A stretch of 64,000 nucleotides of DNA from Candidatus Hydrogenedens sp. Its GTDB lineage: Bacteria; Hydrogenedentota; Hydrogenedentia; Hydrogenedentales; Hydrogenedentaceae. The stretch is from contig JBMFRC010000004.1 of assembly GCA_049968235.1 (NCBI GenBank), positions 190,013-254,012 on the forward strand. Direction: 5' to 3'. This document shows positions 4,984 to 58,595 of this stretch, in pieces (the first letter of the stretch is position 1; every line of letters starts with the position of its first letter). The position numbers and the translations under genes were made by a program. The notes beneath the pieces were generated by a model. It ran no database searches. It saw only the letters and a program-made list of their open reading frames with translations, and was not told where the DNA came from.

Positions 4984-4996
4984 ATATTAAAAGAAT

Positions 4997-11755: not shown

Positions 11756-11757
11756 TT

Positions 11758-11764
11758 AAGGAGG
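11758..11764 (+). promoter_or_regulatory. Shine-Dalgarno AAGGAGG, 7 nt upstream of the ATG at 11772.
   Basis: Read directly from the sequence. Shows that SD-dependent initiation is used in this genome. Confidence 0.7.
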
Positions 11765-11771
11765 TATAACT

Positions 11772-15060: not shown

Positions 15061-15364
15061 AAGAAAGCCTTAAATCACAAGTTATAAGATAGAATTACAT
15101 ACTTACAGTTTAGCAATTGGGTGTTCGTGAATTCCATAGCCCCTTTGTAGCACGATGAATAAATATAAATGTTCAATATCAACAGGAAATAAGACATTTA
15201 TAAAAGTATATAGCAATAAGAAATAAGATAAAGCAGATAATATTAGAAAGCAAGAAGGAGAAATATATACTTGCGATTAAGTATCACCTAAATGCGAATA
15301 CTATTCTGCAAAAACGAAAGATGATTAAAGAACCGAAAGAACCTATAAAACAATCGTAAAACTG

Positions 15365-15983
15365 TTGTATCTACGCCCGAGGATGATAATGAAAGTAGAA
15401 GAATTGAGAAAACTTGATGATAAATCATCACGATCCCATAAACTACGAACCGTGTTCAATCTGAAGAATGACCAGAAAGCAGAGAATGTTAAAGCATTTT
15501 TAGATGAGTTGATGGCAGTCTATCCTTATCCAATACGAATGATACCGACCAATAATGGTAAGGAATCTACTAACTGCTTCTGCCGGGGTAGAAAACAACC
15601 CTCCGGTAAATATATCTTTGGGCACCTCTGTCAGAGACTCGTTATAGGATACTGACTGACTTTCCCTATACACCGGAAATAAATGGTTAGTAGAAGGTTT
15701 TAATGGTATAATAACAGAAATATTAAAACAACATTATTTCACGGATTACAAAAAGTCGATGGATAAATCAAACCAGTATACCTATTGTTATAATTATGTT
15801 CATAAACAACAATTATTAAACAACAAAAGCCCAGCAGAGGCATTAGGTAAATGGTATAATAAAAAATCTTTCCTTTTTCGCCCTCTTTTATTCTATCAAA
15901 TTACATCTTTTCAAAACCTAGCAATTAATTACTATGAGAAAGAAAATCAGACGCAAAGTTATCCCTCAAACCTATTAAACTGA
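15365..15983 (+). mobile_element. Degenerate IS transposase remnant (rve/DDE integrase core, IS3/IS481-superfamily-like). It is 5'-truncated and frameshifted, so it is a pseudogene.
   Basis: Fragment 1 reads ...IRMIPTNNGKEST (the DNG-x-EF region). After a frame change, a second frame reads LTDFPYTPEINGLVEGFNGIITEIL...YNYVHKQQLLNNKSPAEALGKW, matching the PQTNGxVERFN...YNxxRPHxaLgxxTPxE C-terminus. No intact ORF and no N-terminal HTH/DD region. Confidence 0.6.
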
Positions 15984-20458: not shown

Positions 20459-20761
20459 TCATCATCATTATCATAGAGTATAAAACCCCAACTAAATAGG
20501 AGTAATATATGAAGAGAAGTTTTAACAAATCAATTCAATAGTACTATACAACAAATCGTAAATATCCATCTATAAAACTACTAATAACAACTAAGTTCAA
20601 AAAAATTTCAATTAGAGTGGTAAGAACATAAAACAAAAATCTGTCAGTTTGTAATGGTAGTATTTGGAGGATGAAAATTATAATACACGTTTTGTAGTAT
20701 AATAAAGGAATATATTGTGTTATGTTTGTGTTTTATTGAAAAAAAGGGTAAAAGATAGTTT

Positions 20762-22300
20762 ATGAATGTTTTATTAGTTTCACTCCAAAAAAATTTTAGT
20801 ATTATTGGCTTAAAACTCTTACACGAGATATTACGCAGAGAGGGCTTTAATTCTAACATTTTATACATACCGGGCTTCCCACAGGATTCAAAAAATCTCG
20901 ATTCTCTAAAAGGATATATAAAAGATTTTTCACCAGAATGGATAGGGGTAAGTCTTACATCAACAGAGTATAAATATGCAAGGGATTTTACATTATTTAT
21001 GAAAAAAAACTTTGACATCCCGGTAATATGGGGTGGAGTAGAACCTACTGTTTCGCCCGAGCACTGTATAGATTATGCTGACTATGTGTGTATAGGAGAA
21101 GGGGAGAAAGCAGTTATAGATATTTCAAATGTTATAAAAAATGGTAAAAAGTTAGAAAATATTAACAATTTAGCATTCAGAGATGGAAAAGAAATTCATA
21201 GAAATCCATTAAACCCTTTAATTGAGAACTTGGATGAGTTACCTTTTATACCTCGTGTACCCTCTAACTCATTCTTGTTATACAAAGGTAAATTACTAGA
21301 ACTAACTCATAAACTGGTTAGAAAAAATACAGTACTCCACGCAAGCATTTACAGAGTCATAAATAGCCGCGGATGTCCAATGCACTGTACTTTTTGCATA
21401 AATTCCTTCTACTTTGATTTGTATCCCACCTATCATTTTAGGACTGCTTCACCTAAACACATAATAGAAGGTATAGTCCGTGGTCTGCAGGAGCCACTAC
21501 CAGTTGCAGTTATATCATTTTTAGATGAAAACTTCTTCGCCCGCAAAAAAGAAGACTTGGACATGTTCTTCAAACTATACAAGGAAAGGGTAAACATCCC
21601 GTATATCATCTATTCTTCCCCGAATTACATCACCGATGAAAATCTTGAAAAGGCAATTGATTCAGGACTACGAGGTATTCAAATAGGTTTACAGAGCGGA
21701 AGTGAATCAGTCTGCAAAAACATTTACAAAAGGACTGTCTCCATCAAAAAATTCTTGGAAAGTGTAGAAAGAGTAAAAAGATATGATGTTGTCCCTAATA
21801 TTGATGTCATCTGCGATAACCCATTCGAGACACTCGAAGATGACTTAGCGACAATCGAAGTTTTGTGCAAAATTCCAAAACCTTACTTTTTCTATCTGCT
21901 TTCTTTAACATTCTTTGAAGGTATCCCTCTGAGAAAAATAGCTGAAGAAAAAAAACCCGAAGTTCTTCATGACCCACATGTAAAAGATATCCTCATAACC
22001 AAACCTACAACCGTAAACAGACTAAAACATTTAGCTGGCATATCTCCGTCTAAAATTGTCATGTTCTTCAGCAAGTGGTATAAGAAAAATCCTGATTCAG
22101 TAATACTAAAAATACTTGTAGAAATTTGCTTTTGGTTCACACTAATTTTCATCCAACCATTTGTATTTCTCTGGATACTTTATATCTTTAGCAAAAAGTC
22201 TATAAAGCAAATGTTAAAGTATCTTTACTATTTTGTCGATTTCCGTATATTCAAAACCTTCAACTTCTGGCGAACTTCTAAAGACACAGCCCAAACATAA
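20762..22300 (+). CDS. B12-binding-domain radical SAM protein with a hydrophobic C-terminal tail.
   Basis: N-terminal B12-binding-like region. Canonical cluster RGCPMHCTFC (CX3CX2C). C-terminal TM segments (ILVEICFWFTLIFIQPFVFLWILYIF). Confidence 0.75.
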   Translation: MNVLLVSLQKNFSIIGLKLLHEILRREGFNSNILYIPGFPQDSKNLDSLKGYIKDFSPEWIGVSLTSTEYKYARDFTLFMKKNFDIPVIWGGVEPTVSPEHCIDYADYVCIGEGEKAVIDISNVIKNGKKLENINNLAFRDGKEIHRNPLNPLIENLDELPFIPRVPSNSFLLYKGKLLELTHKLVRKNTVLHASIYRVINSRGCPMHCTFCINSFYFDLYPTYHFRTASPKHIIEGIVRGLQEPLPVAVISFLDENFFARKKEDLDMFFKLYKERVNIPYIIYSSPNYITDENLEKAIDSGLRGIQIGLQSGSESVCKNIYKRTVSIKKFLESVERVKRYDVVPNIDVICDNPFETLEDDLATIEVLCKIPKPYFFYLLSLTFFEGIPLRKIAEEKKPEVLHDPHVKDILITKPTTVNRLKHLAGISPSKIVMFFSKWYKKNPDSVILKILVEICFWFTLIFIQPFVFLWILYIFSKKSIKQMLKYLYYFVDFRIFKTFNFWRTSKDTAQT

Positions 22301-22607
22301 GAAAATCAACCTGGTCTCAAGCACAATTAGAATATTCGATAACGACAAGTGTATTGGGTACCACGAAGAAATTCAAAATTTAGCAAGTTAATATCTAAAA
22401 CTAAAAAAACTCCTTTCATCAGTCTGCGAATAATCAATTCATTTAATTAAAAAGTATTCAGCCCACTTTATTACCACTTCACAATTAAAATAAAGAATAT
22501 ATATCCAATATTAAGAGGACGATATGAGAATTTAAGAAACGATAGAATTTGAAGGAGTTTACTACCCACCTTCTGCTGAGTAAAAAAAACAGCCCTCAGG
22601 AAAATAT

Positions 22608-22890
22608 ATCTTCGACCTATAAGAAATTGGACATAGATAGTAAACGCAGACCTATAACAGAGGGGGAAACATAATGCCAGAAAAGGTATTCGAGTATATA
22701 ATAAACAGGCATAGTGGCAGGGTCATAAAGAGGATTTAAGAAAAGGAATTCCTTTAATGACCCAGCATTTATATGAACTAAACTGGAATACTCATCCCAC
22801 CACCCTGATTCATCTGAAGTTTTATATATACAAATAACAAAAGCCAATAAAATAATAAGCAAACAAAAAACAAACACTTGTATATTATGT
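22608..22890. repeat. Second copy of the roughly 300-bp GT-C 5'-end segment (partner of 14728..15033).
   Basis: Direct DNA comparison, as for the partner copy. Confidence 0.8.
22617..22877 (-). pseudogene. Truncated 5' fragment (about aa 14-100) of a subfamily-B GT-C glycosyltransferase gene; a duplicate of the 5' end of the gene at 12847..15060.
   Basis: The translation VFVFCLLIILLAFVICIYKTSDESGWWDEYSSLVHINAGSLKEFLFLNPLYDPATMPVYYILEYLFWHYVSPSVIGLRLLS is nearly identical to the N-terminus of the intact paralog. It terminates after MSNFL. The ORF track start is a GTG. Confidence 0.7.
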
Positions 22891-23389
22891 CTCTTAGGTA
22901 ATAATCCGGGATTTTGGATTATTTCCCCTGTCTTATCCTTCCAGTAAATCCCATTAATATTCTGTAATGACTCTTTTTCCGGAAAAGTTTCTATAATCTG
23001 CTTTAATGCAATTTCGCCTTCCCCGGGACCAGAATATCTATATCTACATCGTCAAAGACACCTTTTCGGACTGCAGAAGCATGTGGTCATCCTACAATAA
23101 TCCATGCAGAAGGACAGGCTGTTCTAAGCATAGGAATTAATGAAGGCAATAAATAGGCAAAGGTTGTAAAAGTAGATATACCTATAATATCGGGATTAAA
23201 TTCTTTAATACGCCCGCATAATTCTTCTACGCTATAATTTTCTAATCTTTGATTTAATATGCCTATATCAATATCTCTTAACGCCCTTCGGAGATACGCC
23301 GAAAGATAAAGTAAACCCATAGGAGGTGTGGCTAATGGATATAAAGGCCTTCGTAAACCCAGATTAACTAAAAACAATCTTTTCTTCAT
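22878..23389 (-). pseudogene. Decayed 5' portion of a third B12-binding radical SAM gene. It has an in-frame stop and a frameshift, and it is fused in frame to the GT-C fragment at 22877.
   Basis: MKKRLFLVNLGL...PPMGLLYLSAYL...NPDIIGISTFTTF aligns to the N-terminus of the 8806 protein. After the stop (IIVG*), PHASA...IDILVPG and then, in another frame, GEGEIALKQIIETFPEKESLQNINGIYWKDKTGEIIQNPGLLPKRHNIQ. These continue the alignment (GGPHTT...IDYVIPGDAEVPLLELLEKIF..IPDKVKGIIYKNEKDEIVDTG..PFPSRHIYNHE). Confidence 0.6.
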
Positions 23390-23439: not shown

Positions 23440-24612
23440 TCAGATAGCATGGAAAAATTTTTCATAGGTATGTGCTGGTATAGCATGAAATTTACATAAA
23501 ATCCATACCAACCATTTAAATTTTCGAAGTAAGGGATAATACGAGGGATAGTCTGTAAAGTACTTATTGGGTGCATTAATAATTGCCTCAAATTCTTCAC
23601 GACTTATACCTTGTTTTCTTAAACAATGTTCAACTCGTTCTTCATCTTCAAAAAATGGAACTTCTCGTAACGCTCTTAATGCGGATTCGCGAGATATTAC
23701 ACCCGTTCTGACTTTTGCAGATAGTTCTACTACACGCCAGTCAAAACCGAATTTTCTCCGGGCATAATAGTAAACCAGAGTAAACAGTTCATTATCCAGG
23801 TGATGTTGCCCTGTATCCTGCCAATCAAATTTCTCTTTTAATAATTTCTCTACTTTTTCCCCCGTATCATCATAGTAATTGGTAATATTTATTACACGGA
23901 TTCTTTTCCAGAGAATCCAATAAATCATATCCTTTAATTCTACATTTTGAAAATGCTTTAACGGTATTGTGCAATATCGTTTGACAATAGCACGCGTATA
24001 TTTCCCGTCAATGTAGTTCCATTTCAATGGCGTTATCCCTTCTTCACGGAAGGAATGACTTAAAATAATGTAATGGACATTCTCGGCAACTGCAGTTCGA
24101 TATAAACTACTTGCAATGCCTATATCATCTGTTAGGTCAATATAAGGGACACAGGCGCGGATAGTTGCATTAGTCAATTCTCGTGATTCAGGCCAGTCCA
24201 TAATTATTGTATGTAATTCTACATCTAATTTATCGCAGAGTTTGGCAAGGTTTGTTTTGGCAATTTCCGAGTCCCAACCGTTATCAAAATGAACAGCCAG
24301 AGGACGCAATTTCATTATTTCCTTAACATAATATAAACAATAAGAAGTATCTCTCCCACCACTGACCCCAACTATACAATCGTATTTTTTTTCTTTTCCA
24401 TCGTTTCTTATCTTCTCTGCAATTTTTTGCAATATCATTGCTCCTTTTTCGCCGGTAGGAAAACGCCTATCCAATTTATCATGTATGTGGCAGAAATTAC
24501 ATATACCTTGATGATCTAAATAAACTCCCGGAATAGATGTATCCATAACACATCGTTTGCATAATGTTTTATCTTCATTTTGTCGAAACATATATCTACC
24601 AACTCTATTCAT
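23440..24612 (-). CDS. N-acetyl sugar amidotransferase (PP-loop ATP pyrophosphatase; WbuX/WbpG/LfnA/PseA family).
   Basis: N-terminal Cys4 zinc ribbon (CKRCVMDTS...CNFC). PP-loop VGVSGGRDTSY (SGGxDS). Followed by hisF/hisH paralogs, as in known acetamidino-sugar loci. Confidence 0.8.
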   Translation of the reverse strand: MNRVGRYMFRQNEDKTLCKRCVMDTSIPGVYLDHQGICNFCHIHDKLDRRFPTGEKGAMILQKIAEKIRNDGKEKKYDCIVGVSGGRDTSYCLYYVKEIMKLRPLAVHFDNGWDSEIAKTNLAKLCDKLDVELHTIIMDWPESRELTNATIRACVPYIDLTDDIGIASSLYRTAVAENVHYIILSHSFREEGITPLKWNYIDGKYTRAIVKRYCTIPLKHFQNVELKDMIYWILWKRIRVINITNYYDDTGEKVEKLLKEKFDWQDTGQHHLDNELFTLVYYYARRKFGFDWRVVELSAKVRTGVISRESALRALREVPFFEDEERVEHCLRKQGISREEFEAIINAPNKYFTDYPSYYPLLRKFKWLVWILCKFHAIPAHTYEKFFHAI

Positions 24613-25427
24613 AATCGTGATAATTCTAAATCAATCGGTTTTTTGGGGTCTCTTTTCCGAACATGTTCAGGTCGAAAATGCTCTAATAATTGTTCTTCTG
24701 TAGGATAAGTTATTAATACTGTTCTTCGAGGACCGTAAAAAAGGAAGAATGCCCCACATGCTACTGCAGAAACTCCCGAAAAATAATAGGCATCCGCTAA
24801 ATCTTTTACAGAACCTGCACCTCCGCAAGCAATTACAGGAATCTGGACATTATCTACAATCACTTTTATTAATTCCAAATCATATCCTTCAAGAGTCCCA
24901 TCTCTATCAATACTTGTAATTAATATTTCACCTGCTCCTTCTTCCTCCGCTCTTTTCGCCAATTCGATTGGATTCAATCCTGTTGATTTTCGTCCTCCAT
25001 GTGTGAATACTTCATATTTGCCATTTACTCTACGGACATCAATGGATACTACAATACATTGTCTTCCAAACTGTTCAGCGGATTTTTTTAATAAATCGGG
25101 AACCTCAATTACAGAAGTGTTAAGGACCACTCTATCAGCCCCTGCATTCAGTAATTCTCTTATGGTATTAATATCACGAATTCCGCCTCCAACTGTAAAC
25201 GGCATGGATGTTTCCGCAGATATTTGTTTCACTATCTCTATTTCTGGAGAGCGATTTTCAAGTGTTGCTACAATATCTAACAAGATTAATTCATCTACAT
25301 TATGTTGATTAAAAACACGAGCTGCATTAATGGGACAACCCACATATTTCGGATTGGTAAATTGGATTGTTTTTTCCAATCCCCAATGTCGTAATAAAAG
25401 GACAGGTATCACTCTAACTTTTAGCAT
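24609..25427 (-). CDS. Imidazole glycerol phosphate synthase cyclase subunit paralog (HisF-like; WbuZ/HisF2-type, LPS-associated).
   Basis: (beta/alpha)8 HisF signatures (VIPVLLL..., DELILLDI, GGGIR, VIACGGAG). 4-nt overlap with the upstream gene. Confidence 0.85.
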   Translation of the reverse strand: MLKVRVIPVLLLRHWGLEKTIQFTNPKYVGCPINAARVFNQHNVDELILLDIVATLENRSPEIEIVKQISAETSMPFTVGGGIRDINTIRELLNAGADRVVLNTSVIEVPDLLKKSAEQFGRQCIVVSIDVRRVNGKYEVFTHGGRKSTGLNPIELAKRAEEEGAGEILITSIDRDGTLEGYDLELIKVIVDNVQIPVIACGGAGSVKDLADAYYFSGVSAVACGAFFLFYGPRRTVLITYPTEEQLLEHFRPEHVRKRDPKKPIDLELSRL

Positions 25428-26109
25428 TCAATACCTCGTTTAAAAAATTTTGTATTAACATTGTACCACTGATATAACTCTTTTCGGGATGAAATTGAGT
25501 TCCATAAATATTCTTGTTTTGATATAAGGAAATAAATGGAATTCCATATTCCGTTATTCCCAGTTTTCCATTAATTTCCTTAAATGGAACAAAATAAGAA
25601 TGAGCAAAATAAAAATTAGGGGTTTCTATCATTCCGGATAACAATGATAATTCTTCTTTATAAACCTTTACATCGTTCCAACCGATATGTGGTACGCGAA
25701 TAGGGTCTTTAACTACATCTCGTATATGACAAACTCTTGCAGGTATCCATCCTAATCCCTTTGATTTTCCTTCCTCACTGAATTCTGTCATAATTTGAAA
25801 GCCTAAACAAATACCCAAGACGGGCTTTTTTAATTCTAATACATAATGATTTAATCTTCTGGTCAAGCCTATCTTTGTAAGGAAATCCATAGCACTTCCG
25901 CAAGCACCAACTCCAGGTAAGACAATTGCATCGAATTTATCCAACTCAATTTCATTACTAACAACTTCAATAGCAACTCCGGTTTTAGCAAAACAACGAT
26001 ATACTGAATGTATATTTCCTGCGGAGTAATCAATAATTCCAATTTTTATATTTTTATCTTGAAATATTTTCATTCCCACGGAAACTATCCTTGTTTTGTG
26101 CCACCACAA
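25414..26109 (-). CDS. Glutamine amidotransferase subunit paralog (HisH-like; WbuY/HisH2-type).
   Basis: Class I GATase: GVGACGSAM catalytic Cys region, and His/Glu in ...GTQFHPEKS. Confidence 0.85.
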   Translation of the reverse strand: MWWHKTRIVSVGMKIFQDKNIKIGIIDYSAGNIHSVYRCFAKTGVAIEVVSNEIELDKFDAIVLPGVGACGSAMDFLTKIGLTRRLNHYVLELKKPVLGICLGFQIMTEFSEEGKSKGLGWIPARVCHIRDVVKDPIRVPHIGWNDVKVYKEELSLLSGMIETPNFYFAHSYFVPFKEINGKLGITEYGIPFISLYQNKNIYGTQFHPEKSYISGTMLIQNFLNEVLNAKS

Positions 26110-27799
26110 AATTATTCAAAAACAGGTAATCCAGTCCTGACTCTATAAATGTCTGTAAGGCTTCTTCTGGAGTCCGAACAATGGGTGATTCATGCATATT
26201 GAAACTTGTATTCAGTATTACACTGGTTCCTGTTAATTCCTTATAATTTTTTAATATTTTATAAAAAGTCGGATTATTTTCTTTTTTTACAAGTTGGGCT
26301 CGCGTTGTTCCATCTATATGTACAACGGCACCATGTTGTTCTTTCATCTTTTGTGTACTTCGAAAACAGCATGTCATAAATTCACCTGCATGCCTTGCTT
26401 TTTCATATCCTATCAAAAACTGTTCCGCGTCCTCATATAAAAGAGCCGGAGCAAAAGGCATAAAATCACTTCGTTTTAACATAATGTTTAACTTTCCTGT
26501 TATATCCCGCATTGTAGAATCACATAAGATAGAACGATTACCTAAAGCACGTGGTCCCCATTCCATTTTATCATAAAATCGTGCAATAATTTTTTTATGA
26601 TAAAGACTTTCTGCTATAAATTGAAATATTTTTGTATCATCAAATTCCTGAAATGGAAGATTATATTTAAGTATTGCTGATTTAATTTCTTCGTTACTAA
26701 AACAATCTCCCCAAAATGCGTGCGGGAGGGGCTGGGGATTGAAATGGAATTGCGAACATATAGCCCCCAGGCTCAGTCCCCCATCTCCCATGTTTGGATA
26801 TACAAATAATTCTTCGACTTCTGGTAATTCATGTATTTTTTGATTTAGCAACACATTAGCAAATACTCCTCCTGCAACGGCTACCTTATTAAGTCCTGTT
26901 TTCTTTAGCCAATATTGAATTAAAGAACCAATTGTCTGTTCTAAGATATTTTGTGACCATGCACATAAATCCTCTCTTGAATATTTTTGTAATAATTGCA
27001 AAAGCCAGTCTCTTAATTTTTTACCATGAGGACCTTTGTATAAGAGAAGATTTTCATTCCATGAAAATGGGTTTTCATCTTTAATTTTGGATGCATCTCC
27101 ATGGGCAGAAAGTCCCGTAAGTTTTCCTTCATCTCTACAAGGAACAAAGCCTAATACCTCTGTTAAATTTTCAAAAAATAGGCCAAAAGAACTTTTAGCA
27201 GAGGATTTCCATAACCTTGTTATAATATTTCCATGTCCTTGAGAAACAGTTAAGGATAGTCCATCCCCCATTCCATCTGCAGTAACAATAAGTGCATTAT
27301 CATACCCCGAACAGAAATAACTTCCCCATGCATGGGCTTCGTGATGCTCAATAAAATAAATAGGGATATGAGGAGGAAGAAAGGGTAATCGCTTATGAAT
27401 TATTTTTTTCAAAATGACAGATAATTTTTTTTTCATTCCTTCGGATGGATTCATATAACTAATAGGATTATAAGAAACAGCCCATTCTGTAATATTACTC
27501 CAATATGTTTTACTTTTTTGATTTTTTTCTCGCCTTGAAAGAAATGCTTTTTTTTGTAAATTTGGGAATAAGCGAAAAAATGGGAATGGGGTTACAAATC
27601 CAGAGACACATACTCCTTCTATATCTTTCCAGGTTAAACCTGTTTGTTTTAAGGCATTTTCTAACGATAGGTATGGAAAGCCTCCCTCATTTTTTCTTTG
27701 TGTGTATCGTTCCTCGTTGGACATAAATAAAATTTTATCATCATCACAAAGAGTAACACCCGCGTCAAAAAAATCTTCACTAATTCCCAATATAATCAT
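26054..27799 (-). CDS. Carbamoyltransferase (NodU/CmcH/TobZ family O-carbamoyltransferase).
   Basis: N-terminal ILGISEDFFDAGVTLCDDDKILFMSNEERYTQRKNEGGFPY. Metal-binding IEHHEAHAWGSY. YrdC/Kae1-like architecture across 581 aa. Confidence 0.85.
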   Translation of the reverse strand: MIILGISEDFFDAGVTLCDDDKILFMSNEERYTQRKNEGGFPYLSLENALKQTGLTWKDIEGVCVSGFVTPFPFFRLFPNLQKKAFLSRREKNQKSKTYWSNITEWAVSYNPISYMNPSEGMKKKLSVILKKIIHKRLPFLPPHIPIYFIEHHEAHAWGSYFCSGYDNALIVTADGMGDGLSLTVSQGHGNIITRLWKSSAKSSFGLFFENLTEVLGFVPCRDEGKLTGLSAHGDASKIKDENPFSWNENLLLYKGPHGKKLRDWLLQLLQKYSREDLCAWSQNILEQTIGSLIQYWLKKTGLNKVAVAGGVFANVLLNQKIHELPEVEELFVYPNMGDGGLSLGAICSQFHFNPQPLPHAFWGDCFSNEEIKSAILKYNLPFQEFDDTKIFQFIAESLYHKKIIARFYDKMEWGPRALGNRSILCDSTMRDITGKLNIMLKRSDFMPFAPALLYEDAEQFLIGYEKARHAGEFMTCCFRSTQKMKEQHGAVVHIDGTTRAQLVKKENNPTFYKILKNYKELTGTSVILNTSFNMHESPIVRTPEEALQTFIESGLDYLFLNNFVVAQNKDSFRGNENISR

Positions 27800-27829
27800 G
27801 AATAATCAATCCTTTGAATTGAAAACAAT

Positions 27830-28816
27830 TTATATCCATAGAGCATTCCAGATTGCAGAAGGATTTAAATTCCATATTAAAGCAAGTTCTACTATCGGTG
27901 CACACCAACAGGTTGCACAACCTATAGGAACTGTTAATTGTTTTATTGACTTCTCGAAATTTTTTTCTGTTTCTTTTTTCTGTTTATACAGTTTTCGTGT
28001 TCCAAACAAGTGGCAGGAAAGTATCGTTCCATCCGGTTCTATTGTATATGTTAACCGACCTGCACAACACCATATTTTCGTGGGATGAGGCCAGTTGCTT
28101 AAATATTTTAAGCCTGCAAATGAATTGCGTACAGGTGCCCCCTGTTTTTTATTTTTTATAATGTACTGTATCGTATCAAAATACTCATCTTTATTAGGAG
28201 CAATTGGATTGGGTTTTAATGATGAATCCAGATGTAGAGTTGCAGGTTGAAACATTACTTTAATATGTTCTTCCTGAGCCTTTTGCAAAACATAATCTAT
28301 TGTTTTTATATTTAGTTTTGAAATTACACATAAAAAAGATGTAGATATATTTTTCATTTTGCAATATTTTACAACCTCAAATAAATGTTTGTAGGTCCCT
28401 TTACCTCGGATTTCATCATGTATCTCTTCGGGACCATCAAAACTTAAATTAATATGGTCAATATACTTCTCAATTCCGTCATGTTTTTCTATGTTTACCC
28501 CCGTAGAACTTAAAAAAATGTTCAATCCAAGTGATTTTGAATGTTGCAAAATTGTCATTATATCTTTTTTAATTAATGGTTCTCCTCCACCAAATGTAAT
28601 CCATCTTACACCTGATTTGTATAAGATTGTTAATCTTTCTATAATTTCTTCCGTATCTAACTCATTTATAGAAACTTCACGAGAACCACAGTAAAGGCAC
28701 TGATAAGGACAACGAAAAGTTAAATTCCATTCTACAAACAATGGTGCATTTATCCCTAATATTTTTGTTTTTATCCATGATTTTAAGAGTGCAGGGACGT
28801 TTTTTATTTTCTTCAT
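27830..28816 (-). CDS. Radical SAM enzyme with a C-terminal SPASM/twitch-type auxiliary Cys cluster domain.
   Basis: FRCPYQCLYCGS (CX3CX2C). C-terminal CCAGR...SCHLF...GCATCWCAP cysteine-rich region typical of SPASM domains. Confidence 0.8.
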   Translation of the reverse strand: MKKIKNVPALLKSWIKTKILGINAPLFVEWNLTFRCPYQCLYCGSREVSINELDTEEIIERLTILYKSGVRWITFGGGEPLIKKDIMTILQHSKSLGLNIFLSSTGVNIEKHDGIEKYIDHINLSFDGPEEIHDEIRGKGTYKHLFEVVKYCKMKNISTSFLCVISKLNIKTIDYVLQKAQEEHIKVMFQPATLHLDSSLKPNPIAPNKDEYFDTIQYIIKNKKQGAPVRNSFAGLKYLSNWPHPTKIWCCAGRLTYTIEPDGTILSCHLFGTRKLYKQKKETEKNFEKSIKQLTVPIGCATCWCAPIVELALIWNLNPSAIWNALWI

Positions 28817-29745
28817 TGAATACTTTCTTCCAAATGAATCTTTTTATATAATTTCAATCGAAATAGTGCTAACCAACCTACGGGAATCCATATCCAGAAT
28901 GTAATTATACGAAACAGTCCTATAACAAGGATTATTTCTGGCAACTGAACCTTAAGCCAGTGCAGAGAAATACTCATTGTTGTTTCAACAATCCCAATTC
29001 CTCCGGGGATTCCGCTACATATTGCGAGGAAGAGATTTCCCAACACAATCATTTCTGCTTGAGTTAAATATATTCCTGATTCTTTTCCTCCTAACAATAA
29101 ATAAAAAATAAGACCGTTAACAGCCCAACCTATTGAACAACCTATGCAAAATATGATGAGGAATAAAGGATGTGATAAATCATCTGCCAGTGATATTTTG
29201 AATTTTGATAACAAGGGCTTTGACATTTTAATGAATAAAGGGAACATAATTAATATTAAAAGTGAAAGAATTATCGGCAGGAGAAAAGTATTCGCATAAA
29301 ATCCTAAGGACATAATTATTATTAAAAATGCTCCTTCAAAAACACATAATAAAAATAGAAATTCTAAAGACATTGCCTTTGAGAGGGAAATATCTGTTGT
29401 TTTTGTAATTATATATCCTCTTAAAGCCCTTCCTAACTGTGCGGGCAATATAATTCCTGCTCCAGAACTCAGGTAAATCCAAACTGACTTCATTATAGGA
29501 ACATTTGCAGAATACTTTTTGAGCATACATCTCCATAAATAATAATCCAATATCCAGTCTAACAACCGTAAAGAACATGCAAACAGGAACAATCGCCATC
29601 TATTTATAATTAAATTCTTTATATCTGTAAGATTCTCTTCTCTTATCTGATAAATTCCAAAACAAGTTATTACAAAAAGAAGAACAAAACCAGATATATG
29701 TAGTAAATTTAATATTTTGTCTTTATTTTTTATAAAATTAAACAT
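28813..29745 (-). CDS. Polytopic membrane protein, flippase-like (UPF0104 / LPG-synthase-TM-region family-like).
   Basis: About 8 TM helices. Gly-rich segments (GIPGGIGIVETT). ATGA overlap with the downstream rSAM/SPASM gene. Confidence 0.5.
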   Translation of the reverse strand: MFNFIKNKDKILNLLHISGFVLLFVITCFGIYQIREENLTDIKNLIINRWRLFLFACSLRLLDWILDYYLWRCMLKKYSANVPIMKSVWIYLSSGAGIILPAQLGRALRGYIITKTTDISLSKAMSLEFLFLLCVFEGAFLIIIMSLGFYANTFLLPIILSLLILIMFPLFIKMSKPLLSKFKISLADDLSHPLFLIIFCIGCSIGWAVNGLIFYLLLGGKESGIYLTQAEMIVLGNLFLAICSGIPGGIGIVETTMSISLHWLKVQLPEIILVIGLFRIITFWIWIPVGWLALFRLKLYKKIHLEESIQ

Positions 29746-29769
29746 TAGTTAAATTATTTTAATTTAGGA

Positions 29770-30966
29770 TTGTATATGATACCACGACGATGGATACATA
29801 TTTTACCTGCTGAATATAACGAAGTTCTAAATCCTTCCCCGGAAGTACTATCCAATTACGATATTATTTCCCGATGGGAAAATGAGTTCCGTTCTTTTAT
29901 AGGTTCTCCAAATGCTGTTTCTTTGCCCTCTGGAAGAGTTGGACTAAAACTTATATTACAACATTTGAATCTTAAAGAGAATGACGAAATAATTATTCCT
30001 GCACTCACATTGAAAGCACTGGTAAGTATTATAACATCATCAGGACTAAAACCTGTTTGTGCAGATATAAACCCTAAAACATTAAATATAGACCCTGAAT
30101 CGGTTCAGAATTTAATTTCACCCCGAACAAAAGCTATAATCGCTTTACATACTTTTGGGAATCCTTGCTTAATTGAAAAAATATGCAAAATAGGTCAGGA
30201 AAATAATATCCCTGTTATTGAAGATACTGCTCATGCTTGTGGTGCCAGAATTCAGAATCAATTTGCGGGGACATTCGGATATGCTGGTTTTTTTAGTTTT
30301 GATATATCCAAGCCCGTAAATACATACGGGGGTGGAATGGTTACCAGTGAAGATTCGTCACTTATTGACTTCATTCGAGAATACAATAAAAAACTTATTA
30401 TAGATACAGTTGAAATAACCAGGAAAGCAAAGTCTATTAAGTTAGAACAGACGTTATATAACATAAAACTCATGTATCCTATTCTTTATTTAAGACTGTT
30501 CCGACCCTTTTTTAAGTCCCTTGAGTTTGTATACCGTAAAATTCAAAGTGTCCCTCCCGAGAATGTTCAGTTTACACCTCTACAAGCAAGTATAGGCATA
30601 GAAAAATTACCTTTCTTAAGTTCAAAAGTAGAACAAAGAAATGAAGTGGCACAATTATATCGTAAGTTATTATCTGATAAAATTAATATTCCTTATGTAA
30701 GACCTGATTGTATACCTTCTTATTACATGTTTGTTGTTATTCTTCCTAAAAAATCTCATAATATCTGTTCTTCCCTTCTTTTTCGTGGTATTGATACTGC
30801 ATTTGAGGAAGAAATAATTGATGATGTTTCTCTAATAATTGAAAAATCACATTGTCCAAACGCTAATAAGGTATACCCAAATTTGTTAGCCTTACCTTTC
30901 TATGATGGTATTTCACAAGATACTATTGAATATATCTGTAATTGTTTAAATAAACTTGTGGAATAA
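29770..30966 (+). CDS. DegT/DnrJ/EryC1/StrS family PLP-dependent sugar aminotransferase/dehydratase.
   Basis: Conserved FSFDISKP PLP-lysine region, plus ALHTFGNP and EDTAHACGA motifs. The true start may be the MIPRRW Met at about 29776. Confidence 0.85.
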   Translation: MYMIPRRWIHILPAEYNEVLNPSPEVLSNYDIISRWENEFRSFIGSPNAVSLPSGRVGLKLILQHLNLKENDEIIIPALTLKALVSIITSSGLKPVCADINPKTLNIDPESVQNLISPRTKAIIALHTFGNPCLIEKICKIGQENNIPVIEDTAHACGARIQNQFAGTFGYAGFFSFDISKPVNTYGGGMVTSEDSSLIDFIREYNKKLIIDTVEITRKAKSIKLEQTLYNIKLMYPILYLRLFRPFFKSLEFVYRKIQSVPPENVQFTPLQASIGIEKLPFLSSKVEQRNEVAQLYRKLLSDKINIPYVRPDCIPSYYMFVVILPKKSHNICSSLLFRGIDTAFEEEIIDDVSLIIEKSHCPNANKVYPNLLALPFYDGISQDTIEYICNCLNKLVE

Positions 30967-30978
30967 AATAAAAAACTA

Positions 30979-33900
30979 TTAATCGGAAAGACCGATTCGT
31001 TTAATTCTTTGCTTTATATCGTCATTTTGAGGATTGAGGCTTATAACTTCTGAAAATACTTTTTTTGCATTATTTTTATCGTTTATTTTGAGGTATGTTT
31101 CCCCTAATTCTATTAACACTTCTGTAAGTGTTTCTAGTGGGACATCTTTTACTTTTAGTTTTTGAACTGCTTCTTGAAAAAGTTGTATTGCCTGTTGATA
31201 ATCACCTATCTCTTTTTTAAATTCAGCATAAGTTGCCCAGCCTTCACCATCACCGGGGTATATATCCAACGCAGTTTTATAAGCCTTCTCTGCCTCCTCG
31301 TATCTTTTCTGCTTTCTATACAAATTTCCTAAATTCCTCCATGCAAGAGGAAATTTGTATTCTAAATTTATCGCTTCCTTTAAATGTTCTTCTGCTAAAT
31401 CAAACATACCCACCTGAAAAGCATAAAATCCTAAGGCATTGTGCAGGTTATGGTCATGAGGCTGTTTTTCTAATGCTTTTTCAAAATAAGGAATTACTTT
31501 TTCCAATTCCCCTTTTACATAAAAGGCATCAGCAATATTATATAGAGCGTTTATTAGGTCGGGTTTTATGGATAATGATTTTTGATAAAGTTCTATTGCT
31601 TTGTCAATATCCCCCGACACAAAAGCATGATACCCTAAATTATTATATGCCAGCGGATTTTTATCGTCTATTTTCAGAGCTTTGTTATACATTTCTTCCG
31701 CTTCTTTTGTTTTCCCTAATCGGTCGTATAAAACTCCTAGGTCATAAGGGACATAAGAATTATTTGGGCTATTTATCATCGCCTTCCGGTATAAGTCTAT
31801 TGCTTGCTCTGTATTCCCCTTCTTTTCTGCCAACTGTGCTAGGTTATAGTATGCCAATTCATCATCAAGTCTTATTTTTAAGGCTTCATAAAATTTACTT
31901 TCCGCTTCTTCCCACTTATTTAACTTGACTAATAAACTCCCCCAGTTGTTCAATACTAAAGTAAAATCAGGAACAATTTCTAATGCCTTTTTAAAGTGCT
32001 CTATGGCTTCTTCAGGTTTATCGTCTTGTATTAAGATTGCTAATTCTCGATGTGCTCGTGCATCCTTCGCATTCATTTCTATTGCTTTTTCAAAATATGC
32101 TATCGCTTCTTCTTTTTTTCCCATCCTTGACAATACCTGTCCTGTCATATAATATACATTCTGAGAGGAGGGGTCAATATTTAATGCTAACTTTAATTTT
32201 TCTAATGACTTTTCATACTCTCCTTTATTAGCATAAATAGCACCCATTTTGGCTATAACATAAGAAAACTGAGGATAGGCTTCTAACGCTTTTTCATAAC
32301 AGGTAATCGCTTGTTCATAGTCTTTCCTCATTTCCATAATCTCTCCCAACTCATTCCATGCCCGAGCATCCCTAACATTTAGTTCTATTGCTTTTCGAAA
32401 ATAAACCTCCGCTTCATCCATTTTTTTCTGTTTCTTTAAAGCACATCCTAAAAGATAAATACTGTCTTGATATTCCGGATTTAGTTGAATTGCCTTTTTA
32501 AAATTATTCACAGCCTCTTGTAAGTTATCTTTGGCAAAAAGAATCCTTCCCAATCGCTCATAGGCATAGGCAAAATCGGGTTTAGCAGATACTGCTCGTC
32601 GGTAATATTCTTCTGCTGTATCCCATTCGCCATCATCCGCATGAATATTCCCCAATTCACAGAGTGCTCTTGCATCCTCTGGATTTAAATCTATCGCTTT
32701 TAACAAAGTATCTCTCGCTTCTTCAATTCGACCTATATTCCTCAATTCTCGACCTATAAGAAAATATACATCTTGATATGAAGGGTCTGTCTCCAACGCC
32801 TTTTTGTAAAAAGTCAGAGCATCTTCAGACCGTCCTTGTGATGAGAGTATTCTGCCATATTTATCCAGGACATAAGTAAAATCGGGTATAATTTGCAGAG
32901 CCTTTTCATAATGTATAAGTGCTTCCTTCCAATTTCCCTGGTGTTCAAGAATTTCTCCTATCTCGTTGTGGGCACGGGCATCATTCGGATTTAATTCAAG
33001 CGACTTTATAAAATATTTCTCTGCCTTCACTTCATCTTTTAATGCAAGATAAGTTTTTCCAAGATAATAAAACATATCTTGATAATCGGGGGCTAATCGG
33101 ATGCCTTTCTCGAACTGTTCTTTTGCCTCGTGAAAATAACCCGATTTAAATAAGTCCTTGCCTAACCGATGATGCATATAGGGTAAACTTTTAGGCATGT
33201 AAAGAAGTGTCTGTGCTTCTTCCAGAGCCTTTTGAATTTCTCCTCTTCTTAAATACGAATCGGCTCGTTGATAATGCCACCTTGCCAAATCTGGTTCAAA
33301 GGGAACCCATCGGATAGAAATAAGAATAAAGCATACAAGGAGTAGTGACAACCAACGCGTTAAAGATAAAGTATCTTTATTTTTTATACATACCCACAAA
33401 AAATAAATAAAGTTTGCACCTATTAAAAAGAACAAAGGGAGAACAGGAACGCGTGCTCTCCCATTCACAAAAAACATCAAGAAACTGCCTAAATAAGTGA
33501 TAATAAATAAATAAATTAACAATAACAATTCGTTAGAATATGAACTATTCGATAGAAAAAGAAATTTTGAAATATTGTCTTTGCTTAACCCAGATTTTAT
33601 GTTTAAAAAAATAAGAATTGTGCCTGCAATAAAAAGCCCGCCTGCCCATGGAAAAGTGGGGAGATATTTCAGAGGAGGGTAATGTTTTATTTCGTAATAC
33701 ACAACTTTATTACAGGTAATTTCGATAGGACACCACAGTAAAATTGCTTTTTTAATAATCTGTATAATTGTTTTTTCAGGATGCGTTTTAATATATTCCA
33801 ATGCTTTCTTTGTAAATATCATTGAAGCATCTGCATGTTTCAAGTTTTTTATCCCCAATTCTTTACCCAATCCTTTTACCACATTCACATAATCACGGGC

Positions 33901-34749
33901 AGTCCAGTTTCCAGTACCTTCTAATTTTTGTAAATATTGATTCCATGGAGTTGTGCCGTCTGCTTCCGGATTATTACCTATAAAAAGATTTTCCCCAAAG
34001 TATGTAGAAATAAGCACCCACTCACCTGATGCAATATAGTTACGGAGTGTAATAGGTATGATAGGGATAAAAGTAAAGATAAAAAGCACAACCCATGATG
34101 GAATAAAAGAAAAATATTTTTTTTCTTTGAATGTAATCCATACCATCCATAAGGCTATAAAAGGTCCAAAGGACAAAATATTCGGTCTCATAGTTGCATA
34201 AGTACCAATGGACAAGCCCAGAGGAATGCACCAGTACCATTTTTTATGGATACTCCAACGATATAGGACATAAAAGATAAAAACAACCAAAAAAACGAAT
34301 AAAGCGGGGTCGTTTACTTCTCCTTCCCAATATATAAAGACACTATAGGTAGAAAGTAAAAAACTGAAAATTAATCCTACAATTTCATTAAATATTGCTT
34401 TCCCTAAATAAAATGAGAGCAAAACTGTCAGGACACCTGCTATGGCATTAAAAATACGGGGGGTCAGGTAACTATCTGAAATAAAACGATAAAGAAAACT
34501 TAGAAAATATCCATGACCTGGTGGACGAAAAAAAGGTGTTGTGCGCATTTCGGGGTCGGTTACACCTTCAGGAACACTCCAATCGCCTGTTACTATTGCA
34601 CGAGCAAAGTAATCTTGAACCTCCGGGTCCTGTTGTAGTGCTGAATAATCGGGAGCATGTTTATATACTTCATAAAGATACCAAATTCTCAGAAACACCG
34701 CTATTAGAATGATTAGAAATAAAACAAACCTAACTTTATTTTCCTTCAC
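30979..34749 (-). CDS. Giant (1256 aa) GT-C fold membrane glycosyltransferase (ArnT/PMT_2-like, subfamily A) fused to about 20 TPR repeats.
   Basis: VQDYFARAIVTGDWSVPEG...FFRPPGHGYFLS. Clear paralog of 4997. The C-terminal roughly 800 aa is almost entirely TPR motifs. Confidence 0.75.
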   Translation of the reverse strand: MKENKVRFVLFLIILIAVFLRIWYLYEVYKHAPDYSALQQDPEVQDYFARAIVTGDWSVPEGVTDPEMRTTPFFRPPGHGYFLSFLYRFISDSYLTPRIFNAIAGVLTVLLSFYLGKAIFNEIVGLIFSFLLSTYSVFIYWEGEVNDPALFVFLVVFIFYVLYRWSIHKKWYWCIPLGLSIGTYATMRPNILSFGPFIALWMVWITFKEKKYFSFIPSWVVLFIFTFIPIIPITLRNYIASGEWVLISTYFGENLFIGNNPEADGTTPWNQYLQKLEGTGNWTARDYVNVVKGLGKELGIKNLKHADASMIFTKKALEYIKTHPEKTIIQIIKKAILLWCPIEITCNKVVYYEIKHYPPLKYLPTFPWAGGLFIAGTILIFLNIKSGLSKDNISKFLFLSNSSYSNELLLLIYLFIITYLGSFLMFFVNGRARVPVLPLFFLIGANFIYFLWVCIKNKDTLSLTRWLSLLLVCFILISIRWVPFEPDLARWHYQRADSYLRRGEIQKALEEAQTLLYMPKSLPYMHHRLGKDLFKSGYFHEAKEQFEKGIRLAPDYQDMFYYLGKTYLALKDEVKAEKYFIKSLELNPNDARAHNEIGEILEHQGNWKEALIHYEKALQIIPDFTYVLDKYGRILSSQGRSEDALTFYKKALETDPSYQDVYFLIGRELRNIGRIEEARDTLLKAIDLNPEDARALCELGNIHADDGEWDTAEEYYRRAVSAKPDFAYAYERLGRILFAKDNLQEAVNNFKKAIQLNPEYQDSIYLLGCALKKQKKMDEAEVYFRKAIELNVRDARAWNELGEIMEMRKDYEQAITCYEKALEAYPQFSYVIAKMGAIYANKGEYEKSLEKLKLALNIDPSSQNVYYMTGQVLSRMGKKEEAIAYFEKAIEMNAKDARAHRELAILIQDDKPEEAIEHFKKALEIVPDFTLVLNNWGSLLVKLNKWEEAESKFYEALKIRLDDELAYYNLAQLAEKKGNTEQAIDLYRKAMINSPNNSYVPYDLGVLYDRLGKTKEAEEMYNKALKIDDKNPLAYNNLGYHAFVSGDIDKAIELYQKSLSIKPDLINALYNIADAFYVKGELEKVIPYFEKALEKQPHDHNLHNALGFYAFQVGMFDLAEEHLKEAINLEYKFPLAWRNLGNLYRKQKRYEEAEKAYKTALDIYPGDGEGWATYAEFKKEIGDYQQAIQLFQEAVQKLKVKDVPLETLTEVLIELGETYLKINDKNNAKKVFSEVISLNPQNDDIKQRIKRIGLSD

Positions 34750-52985: not shown

Positions 52986-53198
52986 TAAATAGACGAAGAT
53001 TTTTATCATATATTTTAACTGCTGTAATTACGAAACAGGGTATTAAAAAACCCTCATTAATCCGGCAAACTTACGCAATACCTCTTTACAATAAGGAACT
53101 TTCTAAATATAATAAGAAAAGTATTTTTTCGTCCAAACCTTCACCATGGATGGGTTAAAATTTAATATAATAAAACAGAATAAATAAGGGGATATTTA

Positions 53199-58294: not shown

Positions 58295-58595
58295 TTTTAT
58301 TTTTTTTACCGTTTCATTACTTTATGTTATTGCCTTTTTTGTCATTTTTATCTATCATATTCTACCTGAAAAATTACCAACAGAATTATCTTATATACAA
58401 ACAGAAGGGGATTCTATAAAACCGACAGGAACTGCAACGGATATTGAAAAAATTAAAAGCATGATACAAAACAATCAACTTTCTGATAAGGAAGCGTTGT
58501 TTTACAAAAAATTGCAGGAAGAGGGAAAAAAAAATCCTCAAAAACATCAACAAATCCGTAATCGTTGGAGACGAGGTAAACAAAGAGATAATTAG
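58281..58595 (+). CDS. Small membrane-anchored hypothetical protein (single N-terminal TM, Lys/Gln-rich tail).
   Basis: FFTVSLLYVIAFFVIFIYHIL TM segment. Overlaps the giant ORF by 14 nt. Confidence 0.4.
   Translation: MKKNDFIFFTVSLLYVIAFFVIFIYHILPEKLPTELSYIQTEGDSIKPTGTATDIEKIKSMIQNNQLSDKEALFYKKLQEEGKKNPQKHQQIRNRWRRGKQRDN

Follow-up and report, generated by a model that had tools for sequence, protein, structure and literature searches.

A window of 64,000 nucleotides (nt) from the genome of a Candidatus Hydrogenedens sp. (assembly GCA_049968235.1, contig JBMFRC010000004.1, positions 190,013 to 254,012; coordinates below are counted from the first base of the window) carries at 23440-30966 a compact set of genes predicted to decorate a sugar, consisting of six closely packed open reading frames (ORFs) on the minus strand and one divergent ORF on the plus strand (Table 1). 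The operon encodes a UPF0104 membrane protein, a radical-SAM enzyme (rSAM), a carbamoyltransferase (CarbT) and the three proteins of an acetamidino-forming triad (HisH2, HisF2 and WbuX), and the divergent gene encodes a DegT-family aminotransferase. All of these are known kinds of enzymes, except for the rSAM, which belongs to an uncharacterised family. On balance, we think that the operon and the DegT gene probably serve to tailor the sugar in an Arn-like system of periplasmic glycosylation that works on a lipid carrier and is conserved in Hydrogenedentota. This model of a sugar built on polyprenyl phosphate is proposed because the window encodes an ArnC/AglJ-like family 2 glycosyltransferase (GT2), six paralogous glycosyltransferases of the GT-C class, and a flippase candidate in the UPF0104 protein, and because scans of nearly all of its larger ORFs revealed no Wzx, Wzy or WaaL. 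Members of the Hydrogenedentota are frequent in sediments and anaerobic digesters and have yet to be cultured, and to our knowledge nothing is known of their envelope chemistry. Our literature searches for this combination of genes returned no match.

Organisation and conservation of the operon

Families were assigned using the curated Pfam gathering and NCBIfam cut-offs, in scans that covered nearly all window ORFs of at least 100 amino acids (aa), that is, all save three ORFs at 60.9-63.5 kb and a 104-aa ORF at 58281-58595 (hereafter the scanned ORFs). All seven ORFs listed in a first-pass annotation of this DNA were recovered at the same positions, with domain matches far beyond chance. The 4-nt overlaps that it had described are found at two junctions, WbuX/HisF2 and rSAM/UPF0104; elsewhere the genes overlap by 14 nt (HisF2/HisH) or 20 nt (CarbT and HisH, the latter read from the ATG at 26073), or are separated by a 30-nt gap (CarbT/rSAM). 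A spacer of ∼30 nt lies between UPF0104 and the divergent DegT gene, whose likely start codon, ATG 29776, is preceded by AGGA. The triad does form one tight unit with CarbT, rSAM and UPF0104, as had been annotated, and this order is kept in at least eight related loci.

A scan for sigma-70 promoters and terminators gave 56 sites versus 59.5 expected from shuffled sequence, and thus no excess; the one feature that stands out is a hairpin where DegT and the GT-C gene converge. This 17-nt palindrome (AATCGGAAAGACCGATT, 30981-30997) lies around the 12-nt gap between DegT and the GT-C gene with tetratricopeptide repeats (TPR), and was seen on both strands by the terminator scan, making it a candidate bidirectional terminator. 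A PAS histidine kinase and an NtrC-type sigma-54 activator are encoded directly upstream of the first GT-C genes (159-2755); since a search for sigma-54 promoters over the whole window gave no matches, nothing ties this regulator to the operon.

We compared the synteny of related loci, labelled L001, L002, and so on. The closest species representative is Ca. Hydrogenedens terephthalaticus (L034), with 83-88% amino-acid identity, and CarbT has a partial match of 100% identity in a Candidatus Hydrogenedentota metagenome-assembled genome. Six loci (L001, L002, L003, L006, L008, and L009) share the order ExbB, GT-C/TPR (∼1250 aa), DegT (divergent), UPF0104, rSAM, CarbT, HisH, HisF, WbuX, and GT-C at identities of 53-87%, with a B12-binding radical-SAM gene (B12-rSAM) inserted between WbuX and GT-C in four of them (L001, L002, L006, and L009). 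Because both order and sequence are conserved down to about 55% identity, this locus is unlike the hypervariable or serotype-variable O-antigen loci, and its conservation points to a lineage-wide feature of the envelope.

The modules of the locus differ in how widely they are shared. We counted them by tblastn of the window proteins against the surroundings of 54 rSAM-family anchors in related loci, using as denominators the loci with enough flanking sequence. CarbT lies immediately downstream of rSAM in 25 of 46 loci, and UPF0104 upstream of it in 18 of 47, an underestimate given identities of 25-30%. HisH and HisF are present together in 10 of 35 loci, and WbuX in eight of 35. In one locus (L087) UPF0104, rSAM and CarbT overlap as a three-gene operon that stands alone amid unrelated genes, and two others (L004 and L012) have an operon of a family 9 glycosyltransferase (GT9), UPF0104, rSAM, CarbT, HisH and HisF with no adjoining WbuX. 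In L037, as in L004, a GT9 gene comes first in a related operon. UPF0104-rSAM-CarbT is thus the core module, which can travel by itself and to which the amidine triad can be added downstream of CarbT as an optional accessory, so the cassette is not the single indivisible unit it had been taken for.

The acetamidino triad

The PP-loop enzyme and its HisH/HisF partners had been proposed to form an acetamidino group in the manner of WbuXYZ and AglXYZ, and profile searches agree with this assignment. WbuX passes the cut-off of TIGR03573 (218.6 bits vs 203.2, E = 1.5e-64, profile positions 3-343 of 344) and has no Pfam match; its translation displays the PP-loop VGVSGGRDTSY and an N-terminal four-cysteine ribbon, CKRC...CNFC (CxxC...CxxC). 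Its sole solved relative is 8wex, an entry titled 'N-acetyl sugar amidotransferase', and the protein is neither a QueC nor an asparagine synthetase. WbuX is also the most conserved member of the set, with 57-91% identity across many Hydrogenedentota. Based on its family, it would convert an acetamido into an acetamidino group on a sugar.

HisF2 exceeds the cut-off of the AglZ/HisF2 family NF038364 (327.7 bits vs 310), falls narrowly under that of WbuZ (TIGR03572, 288.2 vs 299.7), and is under that of the hisF equivalog (TIGR00735, 232.2 vs 294.55). When aligned to the sequences of HisF crystal structures, it has a leucine instead of the catalytic Asp11 and retains Asp130 (T. maritima numbering). 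HisH matches PF00117 and also TIGR01855 (197.6 bits vs 105.4), a profile that cannot tell HisH from HisH2 paralogs; its glutaminase triad is intact, as read in the translation from the GICLG nucleophile elbow and the His and Glu of FHPE. Domains of HisA, B, C, D, G or I are absent from the scanned ORFs, which, along with the missed hisF equivalog and the loss of Asp11, speaks against a true histidine pathway.

The same three families, adjacent and translationally coupled, make up WbuX/WbuY/WbuZ in E. coli O145, WbpG-HisH2-HisF2 in P. aeruginosa O5, and AglX/AglY/AglZ in Methanococcus maripaludis. In contrast to these, the triad of the window is located downstream of CarbT in a UPF0104-rSAM-CarbT operon, is dispensable in many related loci, and has GT-C genes as its surroundings instead of a Wzx/Wzy or AglB-type cluster. 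The CarbT-HisH-HisF arrangement of L004 and L012 had suggested that HisH and HisF serve CarbT. We rejected this possibility, as the L004 genome encodes a 69%-identical WbuX ∼420 kb away, and its triad is therefore complete but split. In one relative (P0443), a single 656-aa ORF joins HisF2 (PF00977) to WbuX (65% identity). This was seen once, on a contig of 5 kb, and the 4-nt overlap may have misled the gene calling; if real, the fusion would be Rosetta-stone support for the triad.

The carbamoyltransferase and the UPF0104 protein

The call of a NodU/CmcH-type carbamoyltransferase is borne out by matches over threshold to both Carbam_trans_N (PF02543, 93.0 bits) and Carbam_trans_C (PF16861, 187.2 bits), and the protein is not a NodU equivalog (NF041651, 86.4 bits vs 1000). 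Its best-scoring solved homologues are NovN (E = 2.6e-57, over CarbT residues ∼128-569), TobZ and GdmN, and the motifs IEHHEAHAW (HHxxH) and ADGMGDG (DGxG) align to NovN. CarbT thus has in common with TobZ, NovN, GdmN and NodU a two-domain architecture, Kae1-like plus YrdC-like, with aligned metal and nucleotide motifs. Whereas the nearest characterised members of this group act on antibiotics or Nod factors, the partner genes found here imply an envelope sugar.

The UPF0104 protein likewise belongs to the flippase-like family to which it had been assigned (PF03706, 75.3 bits vs 33.4; about eight predicted hydrophobic segments), with a score under the TIGR00374 cut-off (30.9 vs 43.2), and its role as a flippase is a predicted one. 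UPF0104 proteins are predicted flippases in gpgSDF and hexSDF, and also form the C-terminal domain of AglD (PMC12713373, PMC5898192, bioRxiv 10.1101/2022.03.11.483950). In gpgSDF, for glucosaminyl-phosphatidylglycerol (GlcN-PG) in P. aeruginosa, and in hexSDF of C. difficile, a UPF0104/PF03706 gene shares an operon with enzymes altering a lipid-linked sugar (PMC12713373, PMC5898192), as in the window. Here, however, the modifying enzymes are a radical-SAM enzyme and a carbamoyltransferase instead of a deacetylase, and the operon includes no synthase glycosyltransferase.

Domain identity of the radical-SAM enzyme

The rSAM protein matches PF04055 (76.7 bits vs 29.5) with a CxxxCxxC motif, CPYQCLYC, that is invariant in a 28-member alignment of the family (A1). 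Five cysteines are conserved in its C-terminal part in the same alignment (C249, C267, C299, C302, and C304). The first-pass annotation had labelled the enzyme as SPASM-type, a label that holds only in part. PF13186 has no match in the protein, even for the isolated C-terminus at an E-value of 10, nor in any of the family members recovered by a word-indexed search (86 hits). TIGR04085 is sub-threshold (21.5 bits vs 27, profile positions 1-69 of 93), and the seven-cysteine SPASM motif for two auxiliary clusters does not fit the just five conserved C-terminal cysteines. These five cysteines suggest an auxiliary-cluster domain of the truncated, twitch-like kind.

The family profile aligns with SkfB, including its twitch region (E = 1.4e-29), followed by CteB, PqqE and BlsE. 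Its match to BtrN (E = 1.6e-3) covers the radical-SAM core only and indicates no specific sequence kinship with BtrN-type dehydrogenases. The AlphaFold2 model of the protein (pLDDT 91.4) has BlsE, a sugar-nucleoside enzyme, as its top fold match (E = 5e-13, TM-score 0.65), and CteB, PqqE, SuiB, SkfB, viperin, MoaA, anSME and DesII come next; BlsE, SkfB, MoaA and anSME match with TM-scores of 0.55-0.68, and this fold search singled out no one functional neighbour. Going by profile and model, the enzyme would be a member of the SPASM/twitch clade whose auxiliary domain is truncated. It also carries a conserved hydrophobic/amphipathic C-terminal helix. The family is large, with over 150 clusters (50% identity) scoring over 300 bits and 3,877 proteins at E≤1e-30 in an exhaustive profile search of 1.84 billion representative proteins. 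That search overturned the picture of a tiny, phylum-restricted family given by the 86 hits of the first, word-indexed one.

A radical-SAM enzyme linked to DegT

The DegT protein is a clear member of its family (PF01041, 211.5 bits) and has the pyridoxal-phosphate-binding lysine of an aminotransferase in the motif FSFDISKP, not the histidine of ColD-type dehydratases. Its gene lies at most 3.5 kb from rSAM in 16 of 32 loci, and 27 of 32 carry DegT, CarbT or both. The two genes are direct neighbours in L011, L019, L088, L016, L032 and L037, and in the Omnitrophota loci L038-L042. Three fusions occur among the best 150 hits of the rSAM family: an rSAM-DegT (P0296), a DegT-rSAM (P0304), and a B12-rSAM-rSAM protein (P0354). 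The two DegT fusions recur in independent assemblies (two members on three contigs, and three members on five contigs). Full-length alignments of the window DegT to the DegT parts of the two fusions give 33-34% identity, with an N-terminal IPRR motif in common, and the window rSAM aligns to the fused rSAM half, also over its full length (31% identity). In a neighbour-joining tree of the rSAM family, adjacency to DegT is found throughout, including the deep branches, and adjacency to CarbT in the Hydrogenedentota crown. The first-pass annotation had seen the rSAM as a possible source of an extra, unspecified decoration; its adjacency and natural fusions to DegT are better explained if it is a partner of this aminotransferase.

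What the partnership might consist of is indicated by the genes around it. The conserved locus encodes neither a 4,6-dehydratase of the short-chain dehydrogenase/reductase (SDR) type nor an N-acetyltransferase, and the sole NAD-type oxidoreductase in the scanned part of the window, a GFO_IDH_MocA gene (42716-44044), is 12 kb off. DegT, which needs a keto substrate, is therefore left without a conventional supplier of keto sugar, and the simplest reading is that the rSAM would generate the ketone. An analogous pair is known from butirosin synthesis, where BtrN, a twitch radical-SAM enzyme catalysing the two-electron oxidation of a secondary alcohol, works with the DegT-family enzyme BtrS (PMC9012708). 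In both cases a radical-SAM enzyme of the SPASM/twitch clade is genetically coupled to a DegT-family aminotransferase with no NAD-dependent keto-forming enzyme, and by this analogy the rSAM may supply the keto group for DegT. The window enzyme differs from BtrN in its own cysteine pattern and its hydrophobic C-terminal helix, their similarity is marginal, and the context here is envelope glycosylation rather than aminoglycoside synthesis. KdnB/KdnA (Kdo8N) are a further comparable pair.

As a more tentative extension, it is conceivable that the whole rSAM family consists of sugar C-H-oxidising enzymes dedicated to DegT, offering anaerobes a route to amino sugars independent of NAD and O2, possibly on lipid-linked substrates and with UPF0104 as the cognate flippase, to which carbamoylation and amidination would have been joined in Hydrogenedentota.

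We also considered WbpB/WbpD-like roles for the GFO_IDH_MocA protein and a hexapeptide-repeat acyltransferase (45737-46354), and rejected them, as both genes are 12-15 kb off and outside the conserved synteny. The acyltransferase gene is oddly placed inside an operon for an RND (resistance-nodulation-division) efflux system (MarR, HlyD-like, AcrB, acyltransferase, and OEP); in principle its product could supply N-acetylation for the sugar pathway, although it is non-syntenic.

In Omnitrophota (L038-L044), relatives of the rSAM are found in tandem copies interleaved with DegT, with up to five B12-rSAM genes per 20 kb, which suggests very radical-SAM-rich sugar tailoring loci.

GT-C and GT2 glycosyltransferases around the operon

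The six GT-C paralogs lie within 35 kb and fall into two groups, proteins of 727, 881 and 1256 aa with TPR arrays and proteins of 737, 774 and 749 aa. The ORFs individually over the threshold of PF13231 (PMT_2) are 2800-4983, 4997-7642 and 18209-20458. Within the second group, the 749-aa protein scores 32.2 and the 737-aa protein 21.2, the latter under the gathering threshold, and the 774-aa protein, for which Pfam has no match, shares 31% of its residues with the 749-aa PMT_2 protein in a full-length alignment. The 1256-aa protein, encoded convergently with DegT, has about ten predicted N-terminal transmembrane segments, conserved synteny, and an orthologue in L001 that matches PF13231; it is a candidate user of the tailored lipid-linked sugar. 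The combination of PMT_2 and TPR in three of these proteins is an architecture also found in the eukaryotic TMTC O-mannosyltransferases.

The GT2 protein has AglJ, PpgS, dolichyl-phosphate hexose transferase (DPhHxTase) and ArnC as its best NCBIfam matches, all under cut-off, and is a candidate polyprenyl-phosphate sugar synthase of the ArnC/AglJ/PpgS kind for the same pathway. Next to it, a B12-rSAM with HpnJ and BchE as best NCBIfam matches, also under cut-off, is a possible C-methylase or rearranging tailoring enzyme. The scanned ORFs yielded no Wzx, Wzy or WaaL, and no initiating phosphoglycosyltransferase either. The first-pass annotation had presumed from the lack of Wzx/Wzy/WaaL that the sugar was destined for the GT-C enzymes, a link now strengthened by the conserved synteny, the GT2 resembling polyprenyl-phosphate sugar synthases, and the six GT-C paralogs.

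A proposed pathway and its alternatives

The presence of the genes, their families, their packing in an operon, the conserved synteny, the modularity and the rSAM-DegT linkage are all observed. Combining these elements, we infer the following pathway, including each chemical step, their order, the acceptor, the sugar, and the placing of all modifications on one sugar. The ArnC/AglJ-like GT2 would first load a sugar of the N-acetylhexosamine (HexNAc) type onto polyprenyl phosphate. The twitch-like rSAM would then oxidise a hydroxyl-bearing carbon of this sugar to a ketone without NAD or O2, analogously to BtrN, and DegT would turn the ketone into an amine. HisH would release ammonia from glutamine, which HisF2, devoid of the cyclase acid Asp11, would merely channel to WbuX, and WbuX would activate the acetamido carbonyl with ATP to yield the acetamidino group. 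CarbT, being of the TobZ/NovN type, would carbamoylate a hydroxyl or the new amine via a carbamoyl-adenylate. Finally, UPF0104 would flip the finished lipid-linked sugar to the periplasmic face, where the six GT-C paralogs, three of them with TPR arrays, would transfer it to acceptors, probably envelope proteins or the core of the lipopolysaccharide (LPS). The TPR arrays suggest protein acceptors, and the GT9 genes heading related operons hint at LPS core as a possible one.

The overall logic is that of Arn/Gtr-like pathways, and the parts correspond to those of the Arn system (PmrHFIJKLM), with the aminotransferase ArnB, the GT2 ArnC, ArnD for tailoring at the lipid stage, the flippase ArnE/F, and the GT-C enzyme ArnT. 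Their counterparts here are DegT, a membrane-anchored GT2 akin to polyprenyl-phosphate sugar synthases, the tailoring enzymes, a flippase candidate, and GT-C transferases of the PMT_2 type. Yet, the equivalog cut-offs of ArnB and ArnC are not reached here, the place of the SMR-like ArnE/F would be taken by a UPF0104 protein, the GT-C paralogs number six, half of them with TPR arrays, and an ArnA-type dehydrogenase is absent. The tailoring is also far richer, comprising amidine, carbamoyl, radical-SAM and B12-rSAM chemistry.

Several points weigh against the pathway as drawn. DegT scores far under the equivalog cut-offs of LegC, PseC, ArnB and DesI (138-140 bits vs 420 or more), and the GT2 is under every equivalog cut-off and 15-20 kb from the operon. 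The rSAM resembles BtrN weakly and has the peptide maturases SkfB, CteB and PqqE as its nearest sequence relatives, and dehydrogenase chemistry is one option beside epimerase, dehydratase and decarboxylase reactions, all of which occur in the SPASM/twitch clade. Its product need not be aminated, given that the stand-alone UPF0104-rSAM-CarbT trio of L087 comes without DegT. WbuX requires an acetamido group and the conserved locus brings no N-acetyltransferase, so that the amidine may be formed at the 2-acetamido group that the sugar already had, independently of the amine made by DegT. The tailoring could also take place on a nucleotide sugar rather than on the lipid carrier. The flippase role of stand-alone or enzyme-linked UPF0104 proteins (GpgF, the C-terminal domain of AglD) is itself a predicted one.

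The nucleotide-sugar version, in its full form, is a cytoplasmic pathway in which tailored UDP- or CMP-sugars feed a Wzx/Wzy- or ABC-type polysaccharide encoded elsewhere, the GT-C enzymes and UPF0104 being unrelated to it. The WbuXYZ, WbpG-HisH2F2 and AglXYZ triads do occur in O-antigen, exopolysaccharide or N-glycan clusters. A Sphingomonas exopolysaccharide cluster gives an example of such a setting (PMC11340318). DegT enzymes normally act on nucleotide sugars, and the genome with WbuX ∼420 kb from the rest of its operon tells us that the enzymes need not be physically coupled. Nevertheless, we find such a pathway unlikely: the scanned ORFs lack Wzx, Wzy, WaaL, an initiating phosphoglycosyltransferase and a nucleotidyltransferase, UPF0104 is translationally coupled to rSAM by a 4-nt overlap and accompanies it in about 18 loci, and synteny with GT-C holds down to about 55% identity, unlike in hypervariable O-antigen loci.

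Alternatively, rSAM and CarbT, with or without the amidine triad, could remodel the head group of a glyco- or phospholipid that UPF0104 then flips, as in systems of the gpgSDF, hexSDF or MprF kind, with no transfer to a glycan. The UPF0104 proteins studied in gpgSDF and hexSDF are indeed paired with head-group-modifying enzymes (PMC12713373; bioRxiv 10.1101/2022.03.11.483950), the L087 trio has no adjoining GT-C, GT2 or DegT, and the conserved hydrophobic/amphipathic C-terminal helix of the rSAM would also fit. However, the operon is embedded with conserved synteny among six GT-C genes and a GT2 resembling polyprenyl-phosphate sugar synthases, no head-group synthase of the GpgS/HexS type adjoins it, and the WbuX family is known from N-acetyl sugars only, leaving this explanation rather improbable.

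A natural-product cluster, whether aminocyclitol- or aminoglycoside-like and mirroring BtrN/BtrS/TobZ or producing a ribosomally synthesised and post-translationally modified peptide (RiPP) with the rSAM as a SkfB/CteB/PqqE-like maturase, would agree with the closest solved sequence relatives of the rSAM (SkfB, CteB, PqqE), with those of CarbT (the antibiotic enzymes NovN, TobZ and GdmN), and with L088, where rSAM-DegT is followed by GFO_IDH_MocA and AP_endonuc_2 in a way reminiscent of inositol chemistry, but is very improbable because genes for scaffold synthesis, precursor and export are lacking (no synthase for inosose or 2-deoxy-inosose and, in or beside the operon, no ORF for a precursor peptide and no leader peptidase, dedicated exporter or resistance gene), and the gene order is conserved across the phylum and tied to GT-C, GT9 and GT2, which is atypical for patchy natural-product clusters.

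Local rearrangement and other features of the window

Downstream of WbuX, where relatives have intact B12-rSAM and GT-C genes, the window carries remnants of both, as revealed by tblastn with the L001 proteins (65% identity for the B12-rSAM, 69% for the GT-C N-terminus; Table 1). A 100-aa ORF within them (23087-23389) matches PF02310. The broken B12-rSAM (479 aa in L001) is represented by residues 3-157 and 123-176 in two frames, followed by a duplicated GT-C N-terminus, and its last 18 codons are found at 15166-15113, just upstream of the intact GT-C gene 12847-15060. Relative to L001 and L006, about 7.5 kb (15167-22631) have been inserted or rearranged in between, comprising two extra GT-C paralogs and a B12-rSAM on the opposite strand.

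A 489-aa protein encoded within 10286-12845, between the B12-rSAM and a GT-C gene, has no Pfam or NCBIfam family, an apparent hydrophobic N-terminal leader, and no transmembrane segment over threshold. It is syntenic in L001, L006 and L008 at 70-77% identity, and its gene adjoins that of an alpha/beta-hydrolase (glucuronyl-esterase/peptidase_S9-like). Further along, a radical-SAM gene (52002-52985) lies directly upstream of one for a Memo-AMMECR1 fusion protein (53199-54734); we take 52002-54734 to be the 'AmmeMemoRadiSam' trio, a set without an assigned function, in which Memo and AMMECR1 are here a single protein.

Table 1. The tailoring operon, the DegT gene, and associated features of the 64,000-nt window.
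Feature	Coordinates	Strand	Remarks
WbuX-type PP-loop N-acetyl-sugar amidotransferase	23440-24612	-	390 aa, last operon gene; TIGR03573
HisF2/AglZ/WbuZ-type TIM-barrel, proposed ammonia-channel subunit	24609-25427	-	272 aa; NF038364
HisH2 class-I glutaminase	25414-26073	-	219 aa from likely ATG 26073; ORF reaches TTG 26109
NodU/CmcH/TobZ-family carbamoyltransferase (CarbT)	26054-27799	-	581 aa; PF02543 and PF16861
Radical-SAM enzyme (rSAM) of uncharacterised family, truncated SPASM/twitch-like C-terminus	27830-28816	-	328 aa; PF04055
UPF0104/LPG_synthase_TM (PplT) polytopic membrane protein, predicted flippase of a lipid-linked substrate	28813-29745	-	310 aa, first operon gene; PF03706
DegT/DnrJ/EryC1 pyridoxal-phosphate sugar aminotransferase	29776-30966	+	396 aa from likely ATG; ORF from 29770; PF01041
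GT-C (PMT_2-type) with long C-terminal TPR array	30979-34749	-	1256 aa, convergent with DegT; TPR matches
Two GT-C (PMT_2) + TPR paralogs	2800-7642	+	727 and 881 aa; PF13231 44.2 and 42.9 bits vs 26.1
GT2 with four predicted C-terminal transmembrane helices	7639-8790	+	PF00535
B12-binding radical-SAM enzyme, beside GT2	8806-10269	+	487 aa; PF02310 and PF04055
Three more GT-C-type polytopic membrane proteins	12847-20458	-	737, 774 and 749 aa; PF13231, paralogy, transmembrane counts
Remnants of B12-binding radical-SAM enzyme and GT-C N-terminus	22632-23389	-	B12-rSAM aa 3-176, frameshifted; GT-C aa 8-95

Implications for the Hydrogenedentota envelope

The locus predicts that Hydrogenedentota make a conserved and chemically unusual sugar, with amino, acetamidino and carbamoyl groups, delivered in an Arn-like manner on a lipid carrier to several GT-C transferases. 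It also adds a second class of enzyme partners, beyond deacetylases, to the UPF0104 flippase candidates. Should the rSAM family indeed be dedicated to DegT, the resulting sugar would be strongly cationic or zwitterionic, and the TPR-bearing GT-C enzymes would install it as a phylum-wide feature of the envelope. The adjacency and fusion of the rSAM to DegT make a specific function testable, the formation of a keto sugar for transamination, and, if this is confirmed, the amino sugars of glycoconjugates would have a further, radical-based route of biosynthesis.

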